NCBI RefSeq assembly: GCF_030013595.1
Contig: NZ_CP122768.1
Source: Escherichia coli
Lineage (GTDB): Bacteria > Pseudomonadota > Gammaproteobacteria > Enterobacterales > Enterobacteriaceae
Length of the DNA: 64,000 bases
Strand: one strand, 5' to 3'
Positions 19,168 to 50,595 of this stretch are shown piece by piece. The notes under the pieces were generated by a model. The model was given only the letters and a program-made list of their open reading frames with translations, did not search any database and was not told the origin of the DNA. Positions within the stretch are counted from its first letter, which is position 1. The number at the start of each line of letters is the position of its first letter. The translations under genes were made by a program, and so were the position numbers.

Positions 19168-22100
19168 CTACCGCGTGCTCAGTCGCCCCTGGCTTCTGAG
19201 CACTTCACGGTGCAGGGCGTCACGTGTGAACTCGCTGATGACCTCCCGGTCCAGATTTATCTGCTGGAGATGGCCGCTGCCGTAGTACAGATGACGCTGC
19301 GTTCTGCCGTCCGGAAAGGTGGTGGCTGTCCGGTTGCTGAGTTCATCGTACTGATGGGTCAGGACGCCCTGCGCCGTCTCCTCAGTCAGCATCCGCCCCA
19401 GTCTGTCGTAACTGAAGCGGATAATCTCCGGTGCGTCTGTTTCCCCGGCATCCGACCGTCGGCGGCGGATTTCCAGTAGCTGGTCTGCCGCATCATGGAC
19501 GTATTCCGTACGGCTATCGGCTGTCTCCTTTGCCGTAAGCCGGCCCGCCGCATCACGTGCCAGCCGATGGCGGATTTCACCGCCCCGGTCCCCGGTGAAC
19601 ACCACTTCCGTGACCGCGTTCAGCGCGTTGTAGCGGTACGTCTGGCGGCAGCCGTCCGGATTTATCTGCTCCGCCAGACGGTCCAGCACATCATGGCGGA
19701 ACCGGTAGCTTTCTCCGTTCTCGTTTGTCAGCGTGACCAGACGCCCGTAAGCATCGTACCCGAATGCCGTCCTGCGCCCCGTCGCGTCCGTCCGGCTGCG
19801 CACCCGGCCCTGCCCGTCCCGCTGCCAGCGCGTTATCCTCCCCATCGGGCTGGTGTACTTCACCAGCCTGCCCGCCGCGTCCGACTGGTAATTCACCGTG
19901 CGGCCGTCCGCCAGTATCACCTCCGTCAGGTGGCCGCTGTCGTCATACCCGTAGCGCGTGCTGTGGCTCTGCGCGTCTGTCATCCGTATCAGCCGCGTGC
20001 GTTCGTCGTAGAACCAGGCCGTCTGCGAGCCGGAACAGTCCGTGTGCCGCATGAGCTGCCCGTCTTCGTTCCACTGAAGGTATTTATTCCCCCCGCGCGC
20101 ATCGGTTATCTGCACCACCTGGCCGTGGCGGTCATACTGATACCGGGTGTTCTGCTGCAGCGGGTCGGTCACCGCAAGAAGATTGCCGCGTTCATCGTAC
20201 TCACAGCACCAGCTGTTCCCCGCCGCGTCCACCTCCGTTTCCGGCTGGTGCCACACCGGGTGCCACTGTGTCTGTGCCACCCGCCCCAGCGGGTCGTGCG
20301 TCTCCGTGATATGCCCCTGCCGGTCATACACATAGCGCCATTTGCCGCCCTGCGCATCGGTCATTCCCAGTAACAGCCGTTCTTCGTCGCTCCAGCGGAA
20401 CGTCGTCACCTGCCCGGCTTCGTCCTGGTACGCCGTCACCTGGTTCTGCGCGTCCCACTGATGATAACGCGTGCGCCCCAGCCCGTCCGTCACGCACAGC
20501 CTGCGTGACGCCAGGCTCCACGCCAGCCGGTACTGTTCACCGCTGTCCGTGTGGTGCCCCGTCACCCGCCACGCTGCGTCATCCGGGCCTTCATACCAGC
20601 CCCACTGGTAATAATACCCTTCGCCGCCCGGCTGGCGGTGCAGGGTCATGCAGTGGTTTTCGTCGTAAGCAAACTCGCGCAGCAGGTGTCCCGTGCTGTC
20701 GTACACGCCGTTCAGGTCGCCGGCCTCGTCATAGCGGTAACGACGCAGCAGTAAAGGAGCCGTCTCAGGGAAATGCTGATAAATCTGTGTCACCCGCCGG
20801 GGATGCGCCGCCAGTTCATAATGCAGACGGATGCACGGACGCTGCTGTTCACCGCTGATTTGCGTGATGCGCCCCAGCTCGTCGTAGTACAGATTCAGAC
20901 AGTTGCTGTTGCGGTCGCCCAGCATTTTCAGCCGCTGGCGCTGCGGGTGATGCGGGTCGGCCTCAAACAGAAAAAACTGCCCGTCATCGCTGCTGATAAG
21001 CCAGTGCCCCTGCTCACCCCGCCTTACCGCCAGTCCTTCGCCGGGGCTGTAAAACCCGCTCCCCGGCAGCACGGCCTCCATATCCAGGCGTCGTCCCATG
21101 CCCGACACAAAGGTCATACAGTTTTCGTCAGCAGTACCCGGCGTGCGCTCGAGGCTGACTTCATACATCACGCTCCAGCCCTGCCCGAACATCCCTTCCG
21201 TGCGGTCGTCACGACTGCTGTACACGCGCTGCCAGTCCAGCGGAAAGTGGCCCGGCAGACTGAAATCGAAGTCATCGTCATCCGCCAGATATTTGGCTCC
21301 GGTGGCGGCATTGACCGGATGCGGAAGGGCACTGATGGCCTTCTGCGTCATCACCCCCATCCCGACACTGGCAGCAAAACAGGCGATTTTAGAAAGCATT
21401 TTGCCCGGGCGAAGAAACATCAGCGCCACAGTTGCCACCAGGGTTATCTGCGACCTGCCGCTTCTGATATCCCTGACCACCAGTAACGGACCGCCAATGC
21501 GGACATCCGGTGACACAAACGCCCCGTTCCCCGGCTCATTCACCACCCAGGCCTCGCAGGTGCAGCGTGCCCCGCTGCGTGCCGCCGGCTGGCTGTTGAT
21601 ACGCACATCCCGCGCGCCTTCCGCGATATATTCCGCTGCGGGCGGTTCATCATCGCCTTTGAACAGATTACTGATGCTGCCAATAACCGCATTCACTCCC
21701 TGAAAGGCGGTTTCCAGCATACCGCCCGGACTCAGCAGGTTAAGGGCCGTTCCCAGAGGGTCATCCAGAAAGGCGGCTTTTTTTTGTGCGAGAAACTGCG
21801 TCAGTGAGGAGGGATGTTTATGGCAGTCGATTTTATCGTCAGGGGTCGGGGTGGAGCCCGGGGCCGCACTGGCCACGGTGGGCTGCCATAGTTCCGACAC
21901 AAAATGTGTCACGCCATCCACCATTTCAGAACGCCCTTCTTCCGTACTGAGCTGGTCATGCAGCGCCCGGGACATCAGCACAGGCCCTGTCACCGGGTTA
22001 ACCGCCAGGGCTATGGCCCCCGCCATTTCCAGATATTCCCCGGCCACATCCCGGAACGTTCTGGCGTCCTCCTGACGCTGCGCTTCTTCCTGTTCCGCCT

Positions 22101-22503
22101 TCGCCTGTGCCTCCTGCGCCTCAATGTCCTGCCGCGATGCCGCAGTCGCCGCTGCCCGCGCGGCAGGTTTGCTGTTGATCCATGTGTCGCCAGAGCCGGT
22201 GAGGATGTAACCTTCAATCTGAGGCGGGAAAAGCATATTTGCGAGGTCTGAACAGACTTCGCTGACCTTTTCTGTCACGCCGGTGTACACCATCGCCACA
22301 CCCGCCACAAAACCGGTCAGCACGACGGCCGTGCACCCCATAGTGATCCCCGCTGACGTCGCCAGTAACGAGGTTGTGCCGACAATGAGGGCATCAATAA
22401 CGACATTTGCGGCCACCTCCAGCACCGCCCCCAGCACATCTGCCATAAACGACGTATGCAGCAGGGCATCACCCTGCCTTGCCGCCCAGAATGCCTCTTC
22501 CAT
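19168..22503 (-). CDS. prePAAR/PAAR-Rhs effector, N-terminal 1111 codons, terminated by an in-frame TAG at 19165-19167
   Basis: N-terminal AARQGDALLH (AARxxDxxxH prePAAR motif), hydrophobic segments, SKPAARA / SQPAARSG PAAR-like motifs, many YDxxGR repeats. Confidence 0.8.
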   Translation of the reverse strand: MEEAFWAARQGDALLHTSFMADVLGAVLEVAANVVIDALIVGTTSLLATSAGITMGCTAVVLTGFVAGVAMVYTGVTEKVSEVCSDLANMLFPPQIEGYILTGSGDTWINSKPAARAAATAASRQDIEAQEAQAKAEQEEAQRQEDARTFRDVAGEYLEMAGAIALAVNPVTGPVLMSRALHDQLSTEEGRSEMVDGVTHFVSELWQPTVASAAPGSTPTPDDKIDCHKHPSSLTQFLAQKKAAFLDDPLGTALNLLSPGGMLETAFQGVNAVIGSISNLFKGDDEPPAAEYIAEGARDVRINSQPAARSGARCTCEAWVVNEPGNGAFVSPDVRIGGPLLVVRDIRSGRSQITLVATVALMFLRPGKMLSKIACFAASVGMGVMTQKAISALPHPVNAATGAKYLADDDDFDFSLPGHFPLDWQRVYSSRDDRTEGMFGQGWSVMYEVSLERTPGTADENCMTFVSGMGRRLDMEAVLPGSGFYSPGEGLAVRRGEQGHWLISSDDGQFFLFEADPHHPQRQRLKMLGDRNSNCLNLYYDELGRITQISGEQQRPCIRLHYELAAHPRRVTQIYQHFPETAPLLLRRYRYDEAGDLNGVYDSTGHLLREFAYDENHCMTLHRQPGGEGYYYQWGWYEGPDDAAWRVTGHHTDSGEQYRLAWSLASRRLCVTDGLGRTRYHQWDAQNQVTAYQDEAGQVTTFRWSDEERLLLGMTDAQGGKWRYVYDRQGHITETHDPLGRVAQTQWHPVWHQPETEVDAAGNSWCCEYDERGNLLAVTDPLQQNTRYQYDRHGQVVQITDARGGNKYLQWNEDGQLMRHTDCSGSQTAWFYDERTRLIRMTDAQSHSTRYGYDDSGHLTEVILADGRTVNYQSDAAGRLVKYTSPMGRITRWQRDGQGRVRSRTDATGRRTAFGYDAYGRLVTLTNENGESYRFRHDVLDRLAEQINPDGCRQTYRYNALNAVTEVVFTGDRGGEIRHRLARDAAGRLTAKETADSRTEYVHDAADQLLEIRRRRSDAGETDAPEIIRFSYDRLGRMLTEETAQGVLTHQYDELSNRTATTFPDGRTQRHLYYGSGHLQQINLDREVISEFTRDALHREVLRSQGRLSTR

Positions 22504-22521
22504 GTCCCGTTCCCTGTGTGA

Positions 22522-22974
22522 TTAATTCGTCCCGGCTTCCTGCCGCATCCTGAAGCGCAGATTCTTTTTAATTTCAGCCCAGCGCGTCATATCTGCCGGG
22601 GTCAGCGGTGTGGTTCTGGCGTAGGTGAAGGCCATCATGACCCGCTCACCCGGCAATACAAATGCCACCTGACACTGGTACACCTGCTCGTTACCCCGGA
22701 GAAACTGGCTCTGTATTTCCAGTCCTTCTTCACCGTCATTAATCCCCACCCGTGTTACCTGAACGGGCGTGTAGTGAAGATCTTTTACCTGTTTCTCCAG
22801 TTTTTTCATTTGCTGTTCAATCTGGGAGGCTAATTCGTCTCCTTCCTGCATCTGGCCCCGGCTGATAATGAGTGCAGCGTCGGGATCGCTGAGGCGCAGC
22901 ATATTAATAGTACTGTCCTGAATAATATTCCCGGAAAAAGTTACAACAGTTTCATTGAGATAATACTCCGTCAT
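22522..22974 (-). CDS. DUF1795/Eag-family effector-associated chaperone candidate
   Basis: 150 aa immediately upstream of the prePAAR-Rhs gene, AGGA RBS; family assignment by context and size, not by a search. Confidence 0.55.
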   Translation of the reverse strand: MTEYYLNETVVTFSGNIIQDSTINMLRLSDPDAALIISRGQMQEGDELASQIEQQMKKLEKQVKDLHYTPVQVTRVGINDGEEGLEIQSQFLRGNEQVYQCQVAFVLPGERVMMAFTYARTTPLTPADMTRWAEIKKNLRFRMRQEAGTN

Positions 22975-23024
22975 AATAATATGAGTCCTTTTAAATTAAT
23001 AAATTATTTAATGATGGTTTTTGT

Positions 23025-25019
23025 TTATTTTTTAGTCATGAAGGCGACATCTATCGCCAATTGAAGGGCTGTTTTTTCCGATGTTCCAGGCGGAAGTATA
23101 TCTGCCGCCCTGTTATTCATATTTAAATCAAGCTGACCTGATTGTGTATTTATCTTTCCATTTTCTGTTGCAGTAATATTAAAATTCTTACAGGTTATAT
23201 TAAATATTCCGTCACTGGTCATTTGCAGGATAGTGTTCCCACAACTAAGAATTATGGAATCTCCCGCAGCAAGGCGTAAATTCTGTACGGCCTGAATCGT
23301 TTTATTTTGTCCGGCAAGGGAGGTATCATCCATCTGAACTGTAAGAGAACGTTCCTCACCAATTATCGCTGTTTCTGTTTTATCAATGACTTTAAGGCGA
23401 TTATTGCCCACCCAGTGGCTTTCATTATTATTTACTTCAATCCGCTGATCTTTTTCGGCATGTAGCCAGACCTCTTCACCGCCAGGTTTATCCTCAAAAC
23501 GTAGTGCGTTGGCATTGGTTGGGCCGCCGCCGATAGTGTGACTGTAAAATCCGCTTTGCGTCGCTGCGCCCGGTAGTCCCCACGGTGGCATGGTGTCCTG
23601 GTTGTAGGTACGCCCAACAATTATCGGTAAATCCGGATCACCGTTTTTGAAATCCACCAGTACTTCCTGACCAATGCGCGGGATCTGAATGCCACCGAAT
23701 CCTTTACCCGCCCACGGATAACTGACACGGACCCAGCAGGAACTATTTTCGTCATTCTTACCGTAACGATCCCAGCCAAACTGAACTTTCACCCGGCCAT
23801 ATTTATCTGTCCAGATTTCCTGCCCTGCCGGGCCGGTGACGATGGCGCTCTGCGGGCCTTTAGTGTGGGGTTTGCTCAGGGTTCGTTGTGGGCGGTAAAC
23901 TTCGCTGGTGGGATGCAGTTCAAAGCTGGTTGAGTAAGAGAAATGCTGCTCCTGGCCGCTGTGTTGCGCATTGTCCTGTATAAATAGCGTGGTCTGTACC
24001 AGCAGATATTCCCGGTTCACTTCGGCTGTCGGATAGTTTTCCAGGATGAAGGTAAAACCTGTCATCAGGGTACGAATATTGCCGCTGCCCTGTACCCGAC
24101 TACCTGGGCTACGCTGTTCTTCCATGCGAATGCGTGTCAGCATTTCACCTTCACTCTTTGTGAAGTAATCTCCCGGCCATTCGTAGTGCTCATATTCAGC
24201 AAGGCCGGTTTCACGCGGATTAGCCACGATGCTCTTCAGCAGTGAACGCGGCTTCATAAAGTCGAAATCATTCAGCACCCACTGTCCACTGCGCAGACTT
24301 TCATTTGCTGTGATGGTATGGATAAACTCCTTGTCCAGTTTCAGCCCTTTCTGGTAATAACACACCAGCGGCGAATCTGCGCATGCCTTGTGGACATTAA
24401 TGGCATCAGCCAGCACTAACGTGTGACTGTTCTCGCTGTGCTCAAACCACCAGTAGATACCCCACTCCTGCATCAGGCGCTGAACAAAATCGAAATCTGT
24501 TTCACCGTACTGCACCTGCCAGGCGCGAGTCGGATAATTTTCCACCAGTCGTTTTTCCACTGGCCAGGGGTACTCATCCAGTACCTCATCCAGGATCTCC
24601 ACCACGTTTTTATTCTGAAACGCTTTGTAGTCACTAGTGTGGGTCAGTATTTTTAACCACGGTTCGAGCCGCAGTTCATACACCACCGAACGTCCTTGAT
24701 GACCAGCCACGCGTGCCGCCGTCACCAGCCCGCTGATATAACGTTTTCCGCCGCCATCCAATTCGATATTGACGCACAGATCTTTGCCCACCATCGGTTT
24801 GAGCTGCAGGTTGGCTGCGGGGGAAACATAGCCCAGGTTCAGGATGTCAGGAGTTTTTAATTTAATAGAATAAGTAAATAGTTCCCCTACTGTTTCTGTA
24901 CCCCCTAAGCTTGCAAACAGTAACATTCCATCAGGAACTGCGCTGCCGCTCAAAGTCACGTTATGTGTACCCGATCCAGTTAGTGCGCCGGATGGATAAT
25001 CTGTAGCTGCAAAACTCAT
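23025..25019 (-). CDS. vgrG: VgrG (TssI) T6SS spike protein
   Basis: 664 aa; N-terminal VgrG-type region ([25 protein letters not shown]), gp27/gp5-like body, Gly-rich repeats; AAGGA RBS. Confidence 0.8.
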
Positions 25020-45986: not shown

Positions 45987-47666
45987 ATGAAAACTAAACT
46001 ATATTCGTATATTCGCTTCTCGTCTATGCGTCAGAATGATGGTTCGAGTTATGAACGGCAAATCAGGATGGCGAGAGAGGTTGCGGCAAAGTATGACCTT
46101 GAACTGGTAAATGATTATCAGGATCTGGGTGTATCTGCGTTTAAGGGTGCTAACTCTAAAACAGGGGCGCTATCTCGTTTCCTTGATGCAATTGGTAGAT
46201 CCGTTCCTGTTGGTAGCTGGCTATTCATTGAAAACTTGGACCGCTTATCCCGTGCCGATATTGTCAGTGCGCAGGAGTTATTCCTTTCAATCATCCGTAG
46301 GGGAATAACCATTGTTACTGGCATGGATAACAAGATCTACTCGCTGGATACTGTTACCGCTAATCCGATGGACCTGATGTTCTCCATCCTTCTATTCATC
46401 CGTGGTAATGAGGAAAGTCAGACTAAGCGCAATCGTACTAACTCAAGCGCATTGATTAAGATTAAAGCTCATCAAGAAAATCCCCAGAATCCGGCAGTGG
46501 CAATCGAGGAAGTTGGAAAGAATATGTGGTGGACTGATACCACATCTGGTTATGTGCTTCCTCATCCGGTCTTCTTCCCTATTGTTCAGGAAGTTGTGGA
46601 ATTACGCAGGAATGGACGGTCAACCGCCGAGATACTGGATCACCTTAACGCGACATACACACCACCACCAGCCGCAAGTCACAAGAGGCATTCAAACTGG
46701 TCACGGGCAATGATTGAAAGGTTGTTCCATACCCGCGCTTTGATTGGTATCAAGGAAATCTCTGTAGATGGCGTTAAGTATGAGTTAAAGGATTATTATC
46801 CTCGTGTGCTAGATGACGCTGAGTTTTATCACCTTAAGAAAAGCATTGGTGTTAGAGCATGTAACTATGGAGACAAGGAAGAAGTTAAACCGATCCCCCT
46901 GCTTAGTGGTGTTAATCTGCTGAAATGTGATCATTGCGGTTCCGCTATGGTTAAGGTGAAAGGAACAAACAGACGGCCTAACCAATATCGTTATTCATGC
47001 GATGCAATGCGCTCTAGTCGTATTGAATGTGTGCATACAAACTGGAGTTTTCGCGGCGACCAATTAGAGAAAGCTGTATTGCAATTGCTGGCTGATAAAA
47101 TCTGGATTGCTGAAGATAAGGCTAATCCGGTTCCGGCTTTGAAAGTACAGATTGATGAAATATCACGCAAGATTGATAACCTGATTGCCCTTTCTGCTAT
47201 GACAGGAGCAACGAAGGAGCTAGCCGATCAGATTACTACCCTCAATAGCGAGCGTGAAACACTCTACAATCAGATCAAGATGGCAGAAGAGGAAATGTAT
47301 TCTGTGGACTCTCAAGGCTGGGAGAAGCTCGCAGAATTTGATTTAGAAGATGTTTACAACGAGGATCGCATTAAGGTCCGGTTTAAGATTAAGCAAGCTC
47401 TAAAACGGATCGGGTGTAGCAGGATTGACAAGTACAAAAACTTGTTTGTACTGGAATACATCGATGGCAAGACCCAGAGAGTTGTAATAGAAAATTCAAG
47501 AGGACCGAGGAAAGGCCGGATCTTCGTTGATTTGAAGACTATCAATGATAGGCAGATTCTGGAGAGTAACGGGCTTGTTCTGCATCCATGTTTAGACATG
47601 CTGACAGATAAGAACTGGAAACCAGAAGAGGAAATACCAGGTCCATTACAGGAATTTGGAATTTAA
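45987..47666 (+). CDS. Large serine recombinase (probable prophage integrase)
   Basis: ATG at 45987 (track start 45972 is TTG); N-terminal resolvase catalytic region (LYSYIRFSSMRQ), zinc-ribbon-like Cys cluster, C-terminal coiled coil. Confidence 0.8.
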   Translation: MKTKLYSYIRFSSMRQNDGSSYERQIRMAREVAAKYDLELVNDYQDLGVSAFKGANSKTGALSRFLDAIGRSVPVGSWLFIENLDRLSRADIVSAQELFLSIIRRGITIVTGMDNKIYSLDTVTANPMDLMFSILLFIRGNEESQTKRNRTNSSALIKIKAHQENPQNPAVAIEEVGKNMWWTDTTSGYVLPHPVFFPIVQEVVELRRNGRSTAEILDHLNATYTPPPAASHKRHSNWSRAMIERLFHTRALIGIKEISVDGVKYELKDYYPRVLDDAEFYHLKKSIGVRACNYGDKEEVKPIPLLSGVNLLKCDHCGSAMVKVKGTNRRPNQYRYSCDAMRSSRIECVHTNWSFRGDQLEKAVLQLLADKIWIAEDKANPVPALKVQIDEISRKIDNLIALSAMTGATKELADQITTLNSERETLYNQIKMAEEEMYSVDSQGWEKLAEFDLEDVYNEDRIKVRFKIKQALKRIGCSRIDKYKNLFVLEYIDGKTQRVVIENSRGPRKGRIFVDLKTINDRQILESNGLVLHPCLDMLTDKNWKPEEEIPGPLQEFGI

Positions 47667-47703
47667 GCGGCCTAAATCGACGTATAACGAGCTAAAACAG
47701 TTA

Positions 47704-47727
47704 AGGGGTACAGATGTACCCCTTTTT
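47704..47727 (+). terminator. Rho-independent terminator after the recombinase gene
   Basis: aggggtac agat gtacccct followed by TTTTT. Confidence 0.75.
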
Positions 47728-48245
47728 AATTTAATTGCGTTAGGCAGCGTAAGCAAGTTTCATAGTAGTTTCCTCTAAAATAATAAGTTCACTACTATTT
47801 ATCAGAGAAAATTGTCTTACTATTGCATTCTCTATCTGGATGTGGGTATAGGCGGGATTGAATACGGCAAAACTGAAACATTCCACTACTGCAATAAATC
47901 ACTAAACAATATAAAGAATATTGCAAGTGTGGAGTGGAACTAATGCAAGATATTAAAATTCATTTTCAAGATTACAGTTTCGTTAAGGTTGATTGCTCTC
48001 CTTCTATCGGAATGGAATTAAGAGATTATTTCTCGTTTGAGGTTGAAGGGGCTAGGTTTAGCCCCCGTTACAAGTATTCTGGCTGGGATGGACGAATAAG
48101 ACTGTTTACGCATGAAAACACCCTACCAATTGGACTATTAAAAACGTTGGGTGTCTTCGTTAAAAATATGGGCTATTCAGTCTGGATTGACCCCAGATTG
48201 CTTGAGAAGGAAGATGTAACCAAAGACGCGATTAATGAATGGATT

Positions 48246-48254
48246 GATTCCTTA
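48246..48254. repeat. IS1 target-site duplication, left copy (gattcctta)
   Basis: Identical 9-mer at 49022-49030. Confidence 0.85.
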
Positions 48255-48309
48255 GGTGATGCTGCCAACTTACTGATTTAGTGTATGATGGTGTTTTTGA
48301 GGTGCTCCA

Positions 48310-48585
48310 GTGGCTTCTGTTTCTATCAGCTGTCCCTCCTGTTCAGCTACTGACGGGGTGGTGCGTAACGGCAAAAGCACCGCCGGACATCAGCGCTATC
48401 TCTGCTCTCACTGCCGTAAAACATGGCAACTACAGTTCACTTACGCCGCCTCTCAGCCCGGTACGCACCAGAAAATCATTGATATGGCCATGAATGGCGT
48501 CGGATGTCGCGCCAGTGCACGCATTATTGGCGTTGGCCTCAACACGATTTTCCGCCACTTAAAAAACTCAGGCCGCAGTCGGTAA
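48310..48585 (+). CDS. insA: IS1 InsA
   Basis: [43 protein letters not shown]. Confidence 0.9.
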
Positions 48586-49007
48586 CCTCGCGCATACAAC
48601 CGGGCAGTGATGTGATTGTCTGCGCTGAAATGGACGAACAGTGGGGCTACGTCGGTGCTAAATCACGTCAGCGCTGGCTGTTTTACGCGTATGACAGGAT
48701 GCGGAGGACGGTTGTGGCGCACGTCTTCGGTGAACGCACTCTGGCCACACTGGAGCGTCTTCTGAGCCTGCTGTCGGCCTTTGAGGTCGTGGTATGGATG
48801 ACGGATGGCTGGCCGCTGTATGAATCACGCCTGAAGGGAAAGCTGCACGTTATCAGCAAGCGTTATACTCAGCGCATTGAGCGGCATAACCTGAATCTGA
48901 GACAACATCTGGCAAGGCTGGGACGGAAGTCACTGTCGTTCTCAAAATCGGTGGAGCTGCATGACAAGGTCATCGGGCATTATCTGAACATAAAACACTA
49001 TCAGTAA
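48504..49007 (+). CDS. insB: IS1 InsB reading frame (expressed as InsAB by frameshift)
   Basis: Overlaps insA in the -1 frame; IS1 transposase C-terminal portion. Confidence 0.85.
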
Positions 49008-49021
49008 GTTGGAGTCATTAC

Positions 49022-49030
49022 CGATTCCTT
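49022..49030. repeat. IS1 target-site duplication, right copy (gattcctta)
   Basis: Identical 9-mer at 48246-48254. Confidence 0.85.
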
Positions 49031-50211
49031 AGAAGTGTATTCCGGTAGCAATAAAATCAATCCTTATTGGTATCAAAGGGAGGCAGTCTTTCAGGGTATC
49101 CACAATCGCCGTAGAATGCTGGTTCTTCCTACCAGTGCCGGAAAGTCATTGATTGCTTGTATGCTGTCTCGTTGGTACTTAGAGAACTACACCGGAAAAG
49201 TGTTAATCATTGTTCCGACTACATCGCTAGTGGTTCAAATGAGGGATGATTTCATCGATTATAGGCTATTCCCTTATGAAGCAATTCATACAATGATGAG
49301 TGGTAGCGGGAAACATCCGGGAGACAGGTTAATCACGGTTAGTACCTGGCAATCAGCTTGCAAGATGCCTCCTGAATGGTTCCGACAATATGGAATGTTG
49401 ATAGTTGATGAATCGCATAAGGCTAGTGCCAAAAATATTACCAATATCATCAATGGAATGAATCATTGCCAATTTAAGATCGGCATGACTGGTTCCCCGA
49501 AAGAATCAAAGTGCCATTTAATGCAGTATGTCGGGCTTTTCGGTGATATTTCTAAGATCGTGAGTATTGACCGCCTGATGGAAGAAGGGCAGGTGACAAA
49601 ACTGAAAATTAACTGTCTTTTCCTTCGTTATACAGATGAGGAATGTAGCGCGGTTAAGGGGCGAGAATATGCGGAAGAGATCAAGTATATTACGTCTAAC
49701 CCACGACGAAATAAGTTTGCTTGTAATTTGGCGCTAAAACTAGCTAAGAAGGGCGAAAACGTATTCCTGATGTTCCGCAATACTAAGCACGGAAAACTTA
49801 TGTATGATGCGTTACAGAAGGTACACGACAAGGTTTATTATATTGACGGTGGAGTTAAGACAGAAGAACGTGATGAATTTAAGAAAATGGCGGAGGGTGA
49901 CACCGGGATCATTTGCGTTGCATCCTATGGTGTGTTCTCTACTGGTGTTTCAATTAAGAATTTGCATCATGTTATTTTCGGTCATCCAGTGAAGGAATCA
50001 ACTATCGTTCGTCAGAGTATCGGTCGTGCATTGCGTAAACATGGTTCTAAGGATATTGCAACGGTCTGGGATCTTATAGATCATCTGTGTATATTCGGTC
50101 GTAACGGAAAAGTCAAGCATAAAAATTATGCGGTAAAACATGCACTTGAGAGAATCCGCTATTATCTAACCGACAAGTTCAGCTATGCAACTAAAACAAT
50201 TGCTATATAAC

Positions 50212-50244
50212 AAAAAAGCGCCCACTAGAGGCGCTTTAATTTTA
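50212..50244. terminator. Bidirectional hairpin terminator between the convergent helicase and M15 peptidase genes
   Basis: aagcgcc cactaga ggcgctt, A-run upstream and T-rich downstream. Confidence 0.6.
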
Positions 50245-50595
50245 TCCATTCCATCGTGATTTTTTCGATCTGGAATCGATATGCGTAAAGGTTTTATATT
50301 TGCCTAAGCCGTATTGAGTAGGATATTTCCCATCAAGATAAGCATGGACAATATCAGGGGAGACACCCTTGATCACAATGTCAGCCGCACGGCCTCGAAC
50401 GTGATAGCTGTTGGTTGCACCGCCTACATTCTTGTTATGAGTCGGGCAACGGTTGCCACTGTTAATAATCACTGGTTTACCGAAGTGCTCTCGTACATCC
50501 TCAAGAATTACCAGTAATTCAGCGTCGATTGTATCATAATCACATTTTCCGCATTTACATTTAAATTCCTTGCGAGAAAAATGCTTACTTAACAT
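50242..50595 (-). CDS. Peptidase M15-family (zinc D-Ala-D-Ala carboxypeptidase fold) protein, possible phage cell-wall hydrolase
   Basis: 117 aa with SYHVRGRAADI and HxH-type motif; GGGGG RBS. Confidence 0.6.
   Translation of the reverse strand: MLSKHFSRKEFKCKCGKCDYDTIDAELLVILEDVREHFGKPVIINSGNRCPTHNKNVGGATNSYHVRGRAADIVIKGVSPDIVHAYLDGKYPTQYGLGKYKTFTHIDSRSKKSRWNG

Follow-up and report, generated by a model that had tools for sequence, protein, structure and literature searches.

Recent IS1 insertion in a uvsW-type helicase gene of a temperate Escherichia coli prophage

Public records treat the two halves of a helicase gene in an Escherichia coli prophage as separate, ordinary proteins, and between the halves lies a copy of IS1. 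This locus raises the question of whether a single gene was broken here by one transposition event, how recent that event is and what the gene was doing in a temperate phage. We analysed a 64-kb stretch of DNA, referred to throughout as the window, and conclude that IS1 almost certainly transposed once, and recently, into a uvsW-type SF2 helicase gene and inactivated it; the gene is accessory cargo of a temperate tailed prophage that sits in hicB. The window consists of E. coli chromosome from position 1 to ~44.4 kb, with an ompC-like gene and the genes from narU-narZYW through ydcS-ydcR, and is filled from ~44.6 kb to its end by the prophage in hicB, which also encodes a tail tip protein, a tape measure protein and a tail fibre. 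The narZ gene of the window shows a homopolymer difference of +1; the assembly may hold small errors of this kind, none of which falls at the IS1 junctions.

The helicase occupies a slot between two prophage genes. Its left neighbour encodes a large serine recombinase, the prophage integrase (45987..47666, + strand; phrog_95, E=1.4e-58), which is matched over its full length of 559 aa by a 'recombinase family protein' of E. coli CFSAN061761, and the left edge of the slot is marked by a hairpin terminator after the integrase gene (47703..47724, + strand), with a 9-bp stem followed by a T-run. On the right lies a gene for an M15-family, endolysin-like peptidase (50242..50595, - strand; phrog_894 endolysin, E=1.9e-45) that is 100% identical to its CFSAN061761 counterpart at the protein level, and a bidirectional hairpin terminator (50215..50237) is common to the helicase gene and this convergent peptidase gene.

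The helicase gene is present in two parts on the + strand, assigned with the help of Pfam: a 5' part with codons 1-104, covering the UvsW_N domain and a linker (47943..48254), and a 3' part with codons 105-496 and the stop, covering the whole SF2 ATPase core (49032..50210). Removing positions 48255-49031 in silico yields a stop-free ORF of 1491 nt, from the ATG at 47943 to the stop at 50208-50210, encoding 496 aa; counted from the GTG at 47934, the same frame measures 1500 nt. The ATG is the more likely start, since it gives the M-D-I-K beginning of the T4 protein and the 496 aa of the RefSeq orthologues and is preceded by GGAG 8 nt upstream. The restored protein aligns with T4 UvsW (PDB 2OCA, residues 2-500) with E=6.8e-184, colinearly and ungapped at the junction, where EWIDSLE|VYSG in the window faces EWLSKLEIYSG in T4. 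Pfam places UvsW_N (PF21241, E=4.1e-34) at residues 3-83, followed by matches to ResIII, DEAD and Helicase_C, and the SF2 motifs I (PTSAGKS), II (DESH), III (TGS) and VI (QSIGRALR) are found at residues 137, 230, 257 and 432, respectively. By these sequence comparisons, the interrupted gene is a clear UvsW orthologue, with the architecture seen in T4 UvsW (2OCA/1RIF) of UvsW_N followed by two RecA-like SF2 domains and with all motifs conserved. The T4 protein is encoded by a virulent phage, whereas the window gene sits in a temperate tailed prophage, is interrupted and has no neighbouring uvsW.1 and uvsY.

The interrupting element is a complete IS1 of 768 bp (48255-49022, + strand), its ends and length being read from the sequence itself. 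The termini, IRL (48255-48277; GGTGATGCTGCCAACTTACTGAT) and IRR (49000-49022; GGTAATGACTCCAACTTACTGAT), form imperfect 23-bp inverted repeats that start with GGTGATG and GGTAATG and match at 19/23 positions. Both the insA ORF (48310-48585, + strand) and the insB' frame, which ends at 49007 on the same strand, are matched by the NCBIfam model of IS1 family transposases (NF033558). The A6C site for -1 frameshifting lies at 48561-48567, within the motif TTAAAAAAC that begins at 48559, and a -1 shift there produces a stop-free translation of a 232-aa InsAB'. Structurally the element is thus no different from a standard IS1 on any feature that could be tested; it is intact, probably active, and the single IS1 copy in the 64-kb window. 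Annotated IS1 elements in several other E. coli genomes are 100% identical to it over all 768 bp, and among the identical copies listed every one (15/15) comes from a pig or wild-boar isolate, such as UMNF18 and strains of O139:H1/O141:H4. In other genomes, copies identical to the window element are found at many different sites. Among IS1 sequences it belongs to a minority variant: identity of at least 99% was seen in ~150 of ~9,600 matching records, the majority of E. coli copies being 90-99% identical.

On either side the element is abutted by a 9-bp target-site duplication, GATTCCTTA, with its left copy at 48246-48254 and its right copy at 49023-49031, in agreement with the 8-9 bp direct duplications made by IS1. 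When both strands of the window were scanned, this 9-mer occurred exactly twice, each time touching one end of IS1, and the chance of an identical 9-mer at two fixed positions is ~4^-9 = 4e-6. With a GC content of 35% within 30 bp of the insertion site, the target is AT-rich, and the element follows helicase codon 104, in the linker that joins the N-terminal DNA-binding domain to the ATPase core. A preliminary description of this DNA had placed a complete IS1 inside a helicase coding sequence and predicted that removal of the element and one repeat copy would restore a continuous frame colinear with T4 UvsW. Both claims are borne out, the excised ORF reading NEWIDSLEVYSGSNKINPYWYQREAVF over the junction as stated there. 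Nor do the findings that would have spoken against them occur, as the two halves align end to end with T4 UvsW instead of falling into different helicase families and the flanking 9-mers, compared in the window sequence, do not differ. The repeat is perfect and its first copy had been located correctly, but the second is found one position to the right of the 49022-49030 given before; similarly, completeness of the element stands while its length, put at about 767 bp, does not.

A comparison with related strains, suggested in the same description, provided the uninterrupted gene. In E. coli CFSAN061761 an orthologue of equal length (WP_112844118.1) lies between the same neighbours and differs from the excised window gene by 24 nt and 3 aa, with residues 1-104 being 100% identical and the 3' part 99.2% identical. 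At its empty site the 20 nt on either side are the same as in the window and the target 9-mer is present in single copy. A second uninterrupted allele, in L3Cip3, differs from the window by 28 nt and 4 aa. When a 4-kb query was compared with the 5,426 complete RefSeq E. coli genomes, the best matches extended over 80-81% of it, everything but IS1, and the insertion was found in no genome. Only 2 contigs, the longer of 5.58 Mb, are on record with the exact split products; they come from one draft and one complete genome, which may represent the same strain. An allele of 307 aa that is 100% identical to the query (P0014) was considered as a second, independent truncation and rejected, as it is cut by the end of its contig. 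The perfect duplication, the absence of any further lesion in either helicase half and the rarity of the insertion among genomes indicate an event that is recent and probably specific to one strain, as does the complete identity of the element to IS1 copies in pig-associated E. coli. The earlier impression of a recent insertion, which had been drawn from the perfect repeats, is therefore upheld on wider grounds.

How would this insertion have come about, and what would it do? We propose that InsAB' transposase, made through -1 frameshifting at A6C, made staggered cuts, 9 bp apart, in the AT-rich target and that their repair then duplicated GATTCCTTA. The present 5' frame enters IS1 and stops at 48279-48281, giving a product of 112 aa that ends in 8 IS1-encoded residues (GDAANLLI); this product is an exact match to WP_282870789.1, annotated as 'hypothetical protein'. 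The upstream piece would thus consist of the UvsW N-terminal DNA-binding domain with a short IS1-derived tail, and the downstream piece would keep the whole ATPase/helicase core but would be cut off from the promoter, ribosome-binding site and start codon of the gene. As the core would be left with neither a promoter nor a ribosome-binding site of its own, a functional UvsW-type helicase is not expected from the split gene. Polar effects of IS1 on other genes are not expected either, since the gene that follows is convergent and separated from the helicase gene by a terminator. From an in-frame GTG at 49035 a product of 391 aa can be read, which corresponds to WP_282870790.1, annotated as 'DEAD/DEAH box helicase family protein'; this codon could in principle permit some translation of the helicase core. 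As for expression of the intact gene, nothing resembling a sigma-70 site reached the threshold of the promoter scan in the region upstream of the helicase, the total number of sites being below the shuffle expectation, and a motif ~30 nt upstream of the ATG (TATAAAGA) is one mismatch away from the T4 late-promoter consensus, in a region that is not homologous to the sequence upstream of uvsW in Phi1.

Some other explanations for the present arrangement deserve to be weighed. As IS1 is a highly abundant repeat in E. coli, where it occupies a median of 11 places in each genome, and as a homopolymer in narZ may be in error, one could suspect that a multi-copy repeat was misplaced into the helicase gene during assembly. 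Such a mis-join would not yield a precise 9-bp duplication at the IS1 termini, and the fusion running from helicase codon 104 into IRL has been deposited under two separate accessions, possibly from one strain; given the exact duplication and the separate deposits, we regard an artefact as extremely improbable. It is also very hard to believe, although slightly less so, that the gene continues to work in two pieces, with the 112-aa N-terminal domain and the 391-aa core either associating or acting separately. Some endonuclease-split genes of T4-like phages do work as two pieces, both ORFs are open here, the insertion respects the domain boundary by falling in the linker after UvsW_N and public annotation lists both pieces as proteins. 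However, no Shine-Dalgarno sequence lies at a useful distance from the GTG, the nearest GGAG being ~20 nt upstream, the promoter scan gave no candidate in the stretch from IS1 to the helicase core, IS1 insertions are strongly polar and the event is too recent for a split form to have been selected.

More serious, if still unlikely, is the idea that the helicase gene, captured long ago from a T4-like phage, was no more than a dead relic by the time IS1 arrived, in which case the element landed in neutral DNA without any effect. The neighbouring genes of what appears to have been a larger cassette (two endonuclease-like genes, uvsW.1 and uvsY) had already been deleted in the window lineage, and most of the related prophages have no helicase gene at all, both of which would suit a relic. 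Against it, the excised ORF contains neither a stop nor a frameshift and retains all SF2 motifs, and its dN/dS is 0.05 relative to close alleles and ~0.15 relative to alleles of 84% identity. Across the prophage alleles dN/dS ranges from 0.01 to 0.16, with 0.01-0.06 among close alleles and ~0.15 at 84% aa identity. Together with the intact motifs, these low ratios indicate that the function is maintained in prophages, and that the helicase gene was presumably under purifying selection and functional before IS1 struck. We therefore continue to favour the inactivation of a working gene by one recent transposition. UvsW migrates branches, regresses forks and unwinds R-loops. For the intact gene in a temperate phage, the default reading would be a RecG-like helicase, acting in branch migration or on R-loops to aid recombination and replication of the phage.

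It does not follow from the loss of this helicase that the prophage is defective. Judged by its distribution, the gene is accessory cargo of the slot: of 5,426 E. coli genomes, 54 have the segment that borders the slot on its right, and 16 of those 54 have the helicase. In OkiPb01713 the slot is empty, with a gap of 152 bp between integrase and peptidase genes, and in 39EVA it holds three unrelated ORFs and an independent insertion of IS1A, which is 93.5% identical to the IS1 of the window and has a 9-bp duplication of its own (CGTCGCCAG). The CFSAN061761 prophage of the same family (~39 kb, integrated in ycdX) has terminase, portal, capsid and tail genes, and all remaining prophage genes in the window, which holds ~19 kb of prophage, are full length in comparison with it. 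Since the helicase is optional and the other visible genes are full length, the suggestion of a defective prophage in the preliminary description holds for the helicase, which is indeed predicted to be knocked out, and cannot be extended from it to the phage as a whole. The prophage backbone is unlike any isolated phage in the phage collection, where the sole match is to the tail-fibre gene.

Where, then, did the helicase come from? Its closest relatives among phage proteins are the UvsW proteins of Krischvirus (RB49, Phi1, GEC-3S and others), with 81-82% aa identity, further phage matches falling below 80% and nearly all of them below 60%. At the nucleotide level the window gene is 81% identical to uvsW of Phi1, with the similarity starting exactly at the ATG; upstream, Phi1 has inh and the late promoter TATAAATA, whereas the window has the prophage integrase gene and a different leader, the flanks being unrelated. 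Assemblies of E. coli and Salmonella contain homologues of 62-99% identity in abundance, and each of the 7 whose genomic context was checked (7/7) occupies this slot in a prophage of the same family, an assignment that applies to homologues other than P0004, P0005, P0007 and P0013. Homologues of 62-82% identity on contigs of 130-170 kb had been considered as genes of T4-like phage genomes; three of them, P0003, P0008 and P0011, proved to be prophage alleles in the same slot, so that the size of a contig does not reveal its nature. In a neighbour-joining tree, which has no support values and is tentative, Krischvirus UvsW is nested within the clade of prophage alleles.

The T4-type synteny of uvsW, uvsW.1, uvsY.-2 and uvsY is absent from the window, where the M15 peptidase gene lies 31 bp past the stop at 50210. 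Several relatives do have other T4-type genes, with a full-length UvsY in L007, UvsY fragments in L004 and L012, and UvsW.1 with DUF2685/uvsY.-2 in L017, and the order and orientation of this cassette are as in Phi1. Such synteny supports a common origin, although membership in the UvsW family does not require it. Upstream of the helicase, relatives carry a gene of 331-392 aa on the opposite strand and a gene of 185-194 aa that abuts the helicase start, both of which match phrog_681 'endonuclease', the longer one being a GIY-YIG protein in RefSeq in L3Cip3. The endonuclease-like protein of the prophages is ~30% identical to its nearest phage homologues, which are encoded just downstream of uvsW in Krischvirus Whisky and JK32. 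In the window lineage both endonuclease-like genes have been lost except for the last ~107 nt of the 185-aa ORF, upstream of the ATG, as have uvsW.1 and uvsY. We propose that the prophage family holds a T4-type cassette (seg-like endonuclease genes, uvsW, uvsW.1, uvsY.-2 and uvsY) in its optional slot and that the window lineage lost this cassette piecewise, the helicase being the last surviving piece before IS1 struck it. In phage T4, segE is a free-standing GIY-YIG homing endonuclease gene that lies between inh and uvsW and targets uvsW (PMC2988022). Directly upstream of uvsW the prophage relatives likewise have an endonuclease-like gene (GIY-YIG/phrog_681) and another endonuclease-like ORF, with the difference that the former is on the opposite strand and its homing role putative.

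A different and more speculative use for the cassette can also be proposed. It may have served not housekeeping recombination but conflict between phages, as a module common to the prophage family and RB49-like virulent phages, a reading that we consider doubtful but worth spelling out. The seg-like GIY-YIG endonuclease might cut the uvsW locus of superinfecting Krischvirus phages, with the 81%-identical prophage uvsW as an immune repair template and the prophage as reservoir and launch pad for homing; alternatively, UvsW expressed by the lysogen might unwind too early the R-loops that prime origin replication of T4-like phages. In both cases the lysogen would have lost its protection or exchange function through the insertion of IS1. 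A PADLOC scan of the helicase and of the cargo genes of the relatives gave no significant full-length match to a defence system: the helicase has generic partial helicase-domain matches of at most 43 bits (PbeA, type IV restriction enzymes, HamB) and the endonuclease-like neighbours match nothing. Such generic matches give no ground for counting the helicase among known anti-phage defence systems.

Disruption of a gene by IS1 is a routine, ordinary event, of consequence here chiefly for annotation, and what is mildly unusual about this gene is its residence in a temperate prophage. Of modest evolutionary interest is the presence of a T4-type uvsW/uvsW.1/uvsY.-2/uvsY block beside homing-endonuclease-like genes in one family of temperate tailed prophages, found in E. 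coli and Salmonella; no paper on this cassette in temperate enterobacterial phages was found in a limited literature search, which is weak evidence of novelty. This member of the family also carries a distal tail-fibre gene of the Krischvirus type, and this gene and the T4-type block in the optional slot together point to repeated gene flow between virulent T4-like and temperate phages of a common host. On a practical matter, the strain disrupted by IS1 and its intact relatives constitute a natural pair of mutant and wild type for the study of UvsW function in a prophage.

An independent insertion of IS1A was found in E. coli 39EVA, at 4001-4768 of its prophage locus (L003), within the slot between the integrase and peptidase genes of the same prophage family. 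This element is 93.5% identical to the IS1 of the window and is flanked by its own 9-bp duplication, CGTCGCCAG; the cargo that it interrupts differs from that of the window, but the slot is the same. Therefore, IS1 has struck the AT-rich cargo slot more than once. In the public annotation, the halves of the interrupted helicase gene are recorded not as one pseudogene but as two separate, unflagged proteins, namely WP_282870789.1, a 'hypothetical protein' (47943-48281), and WP_282870790.1, a 'DEAD/DEAH box helicase family protein' (49035-50210).

Related prophages carry two endonuclease-like genes immediately 5' of uvsW (L002 3741-5639 and L007 6125-8014, with equivalents in L016, L017 and L018). 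The first, encoding 331-392 aa on the strand opposite to uvsW, matches phrog_681, and its copy in the L3Cip3 prophage is annotated as GIY-YIG. The second, an ORF of 185-194 aa that abuts the helicase start, matches the C-terminal part of phrog_681 and shows a weak match to a CapR homology domain. The arrangement of these genes with uvsW recalls that of T4 segE-uvsW, in which a free-standing GIY-YIG gene lies just upstream of the gene that it targets (PMC2988022). The prophages of CFSAN061761 (L013 21233-22477) and OkiPb01713 (L014 41004-42041) have an additional free-standing GIY-YIG nuclease gene within their structural module, with tail-fibre genes on one side of it and head genes on the other; this site lies outside the prophage portion covered by the window.

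The tail-fibre gene of the window's prophage (62059-64000, minus strand) shares ~85% nucleotide identity with the gene for gp37, which forms the distal subunit of the long tail fibre in Krischvirus phages Phi1, ECD7 and RB49. It is thus a second Krischvirus-like gene of this temperate prophage. In the CFSAN061761 prophage, which is otherwise near-identical, the tail fibre shares just 42% amino-acid identity with that of the window. The prophages belong to one family with 92% identical serine integrases, and their host target genes differ: hicB, adjoining ydcR, is the insertion site in the window (~44.4-44.6 kb), L3Cip3 and OkiPb01713, whereas CFSAN061761 and the Salmonella relatives carry the prophage in ycdX. 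In every case the target gene is split by the prophage.

Among the chromosomal genes of the window, narZ (plus strand) differs at 8901 and 9507 from E. coli MEI003, which is 99.8% identical. A C-to-T change turns a CAG codon into an in-frame TAG (...WRTLSGRQ*LYQDHPW...), and one additional A within an A-run, right before the narZ stop and the narY start, brings the narZ tail into frame with narY. The narZ of the window is probably a pseudogene; the extra A in the homopolymer at its end could be a sequencing error. Two other features of the chromosomal part lie on the minus strand: the Hfq-binding sRNA isrA at 17086-17214, which scores 112.6 bits against Rfam RF01385, and, at 19168-25019, a pair of genes from a type VI secretion island, one for an RHS-core protein and one for VgrG.
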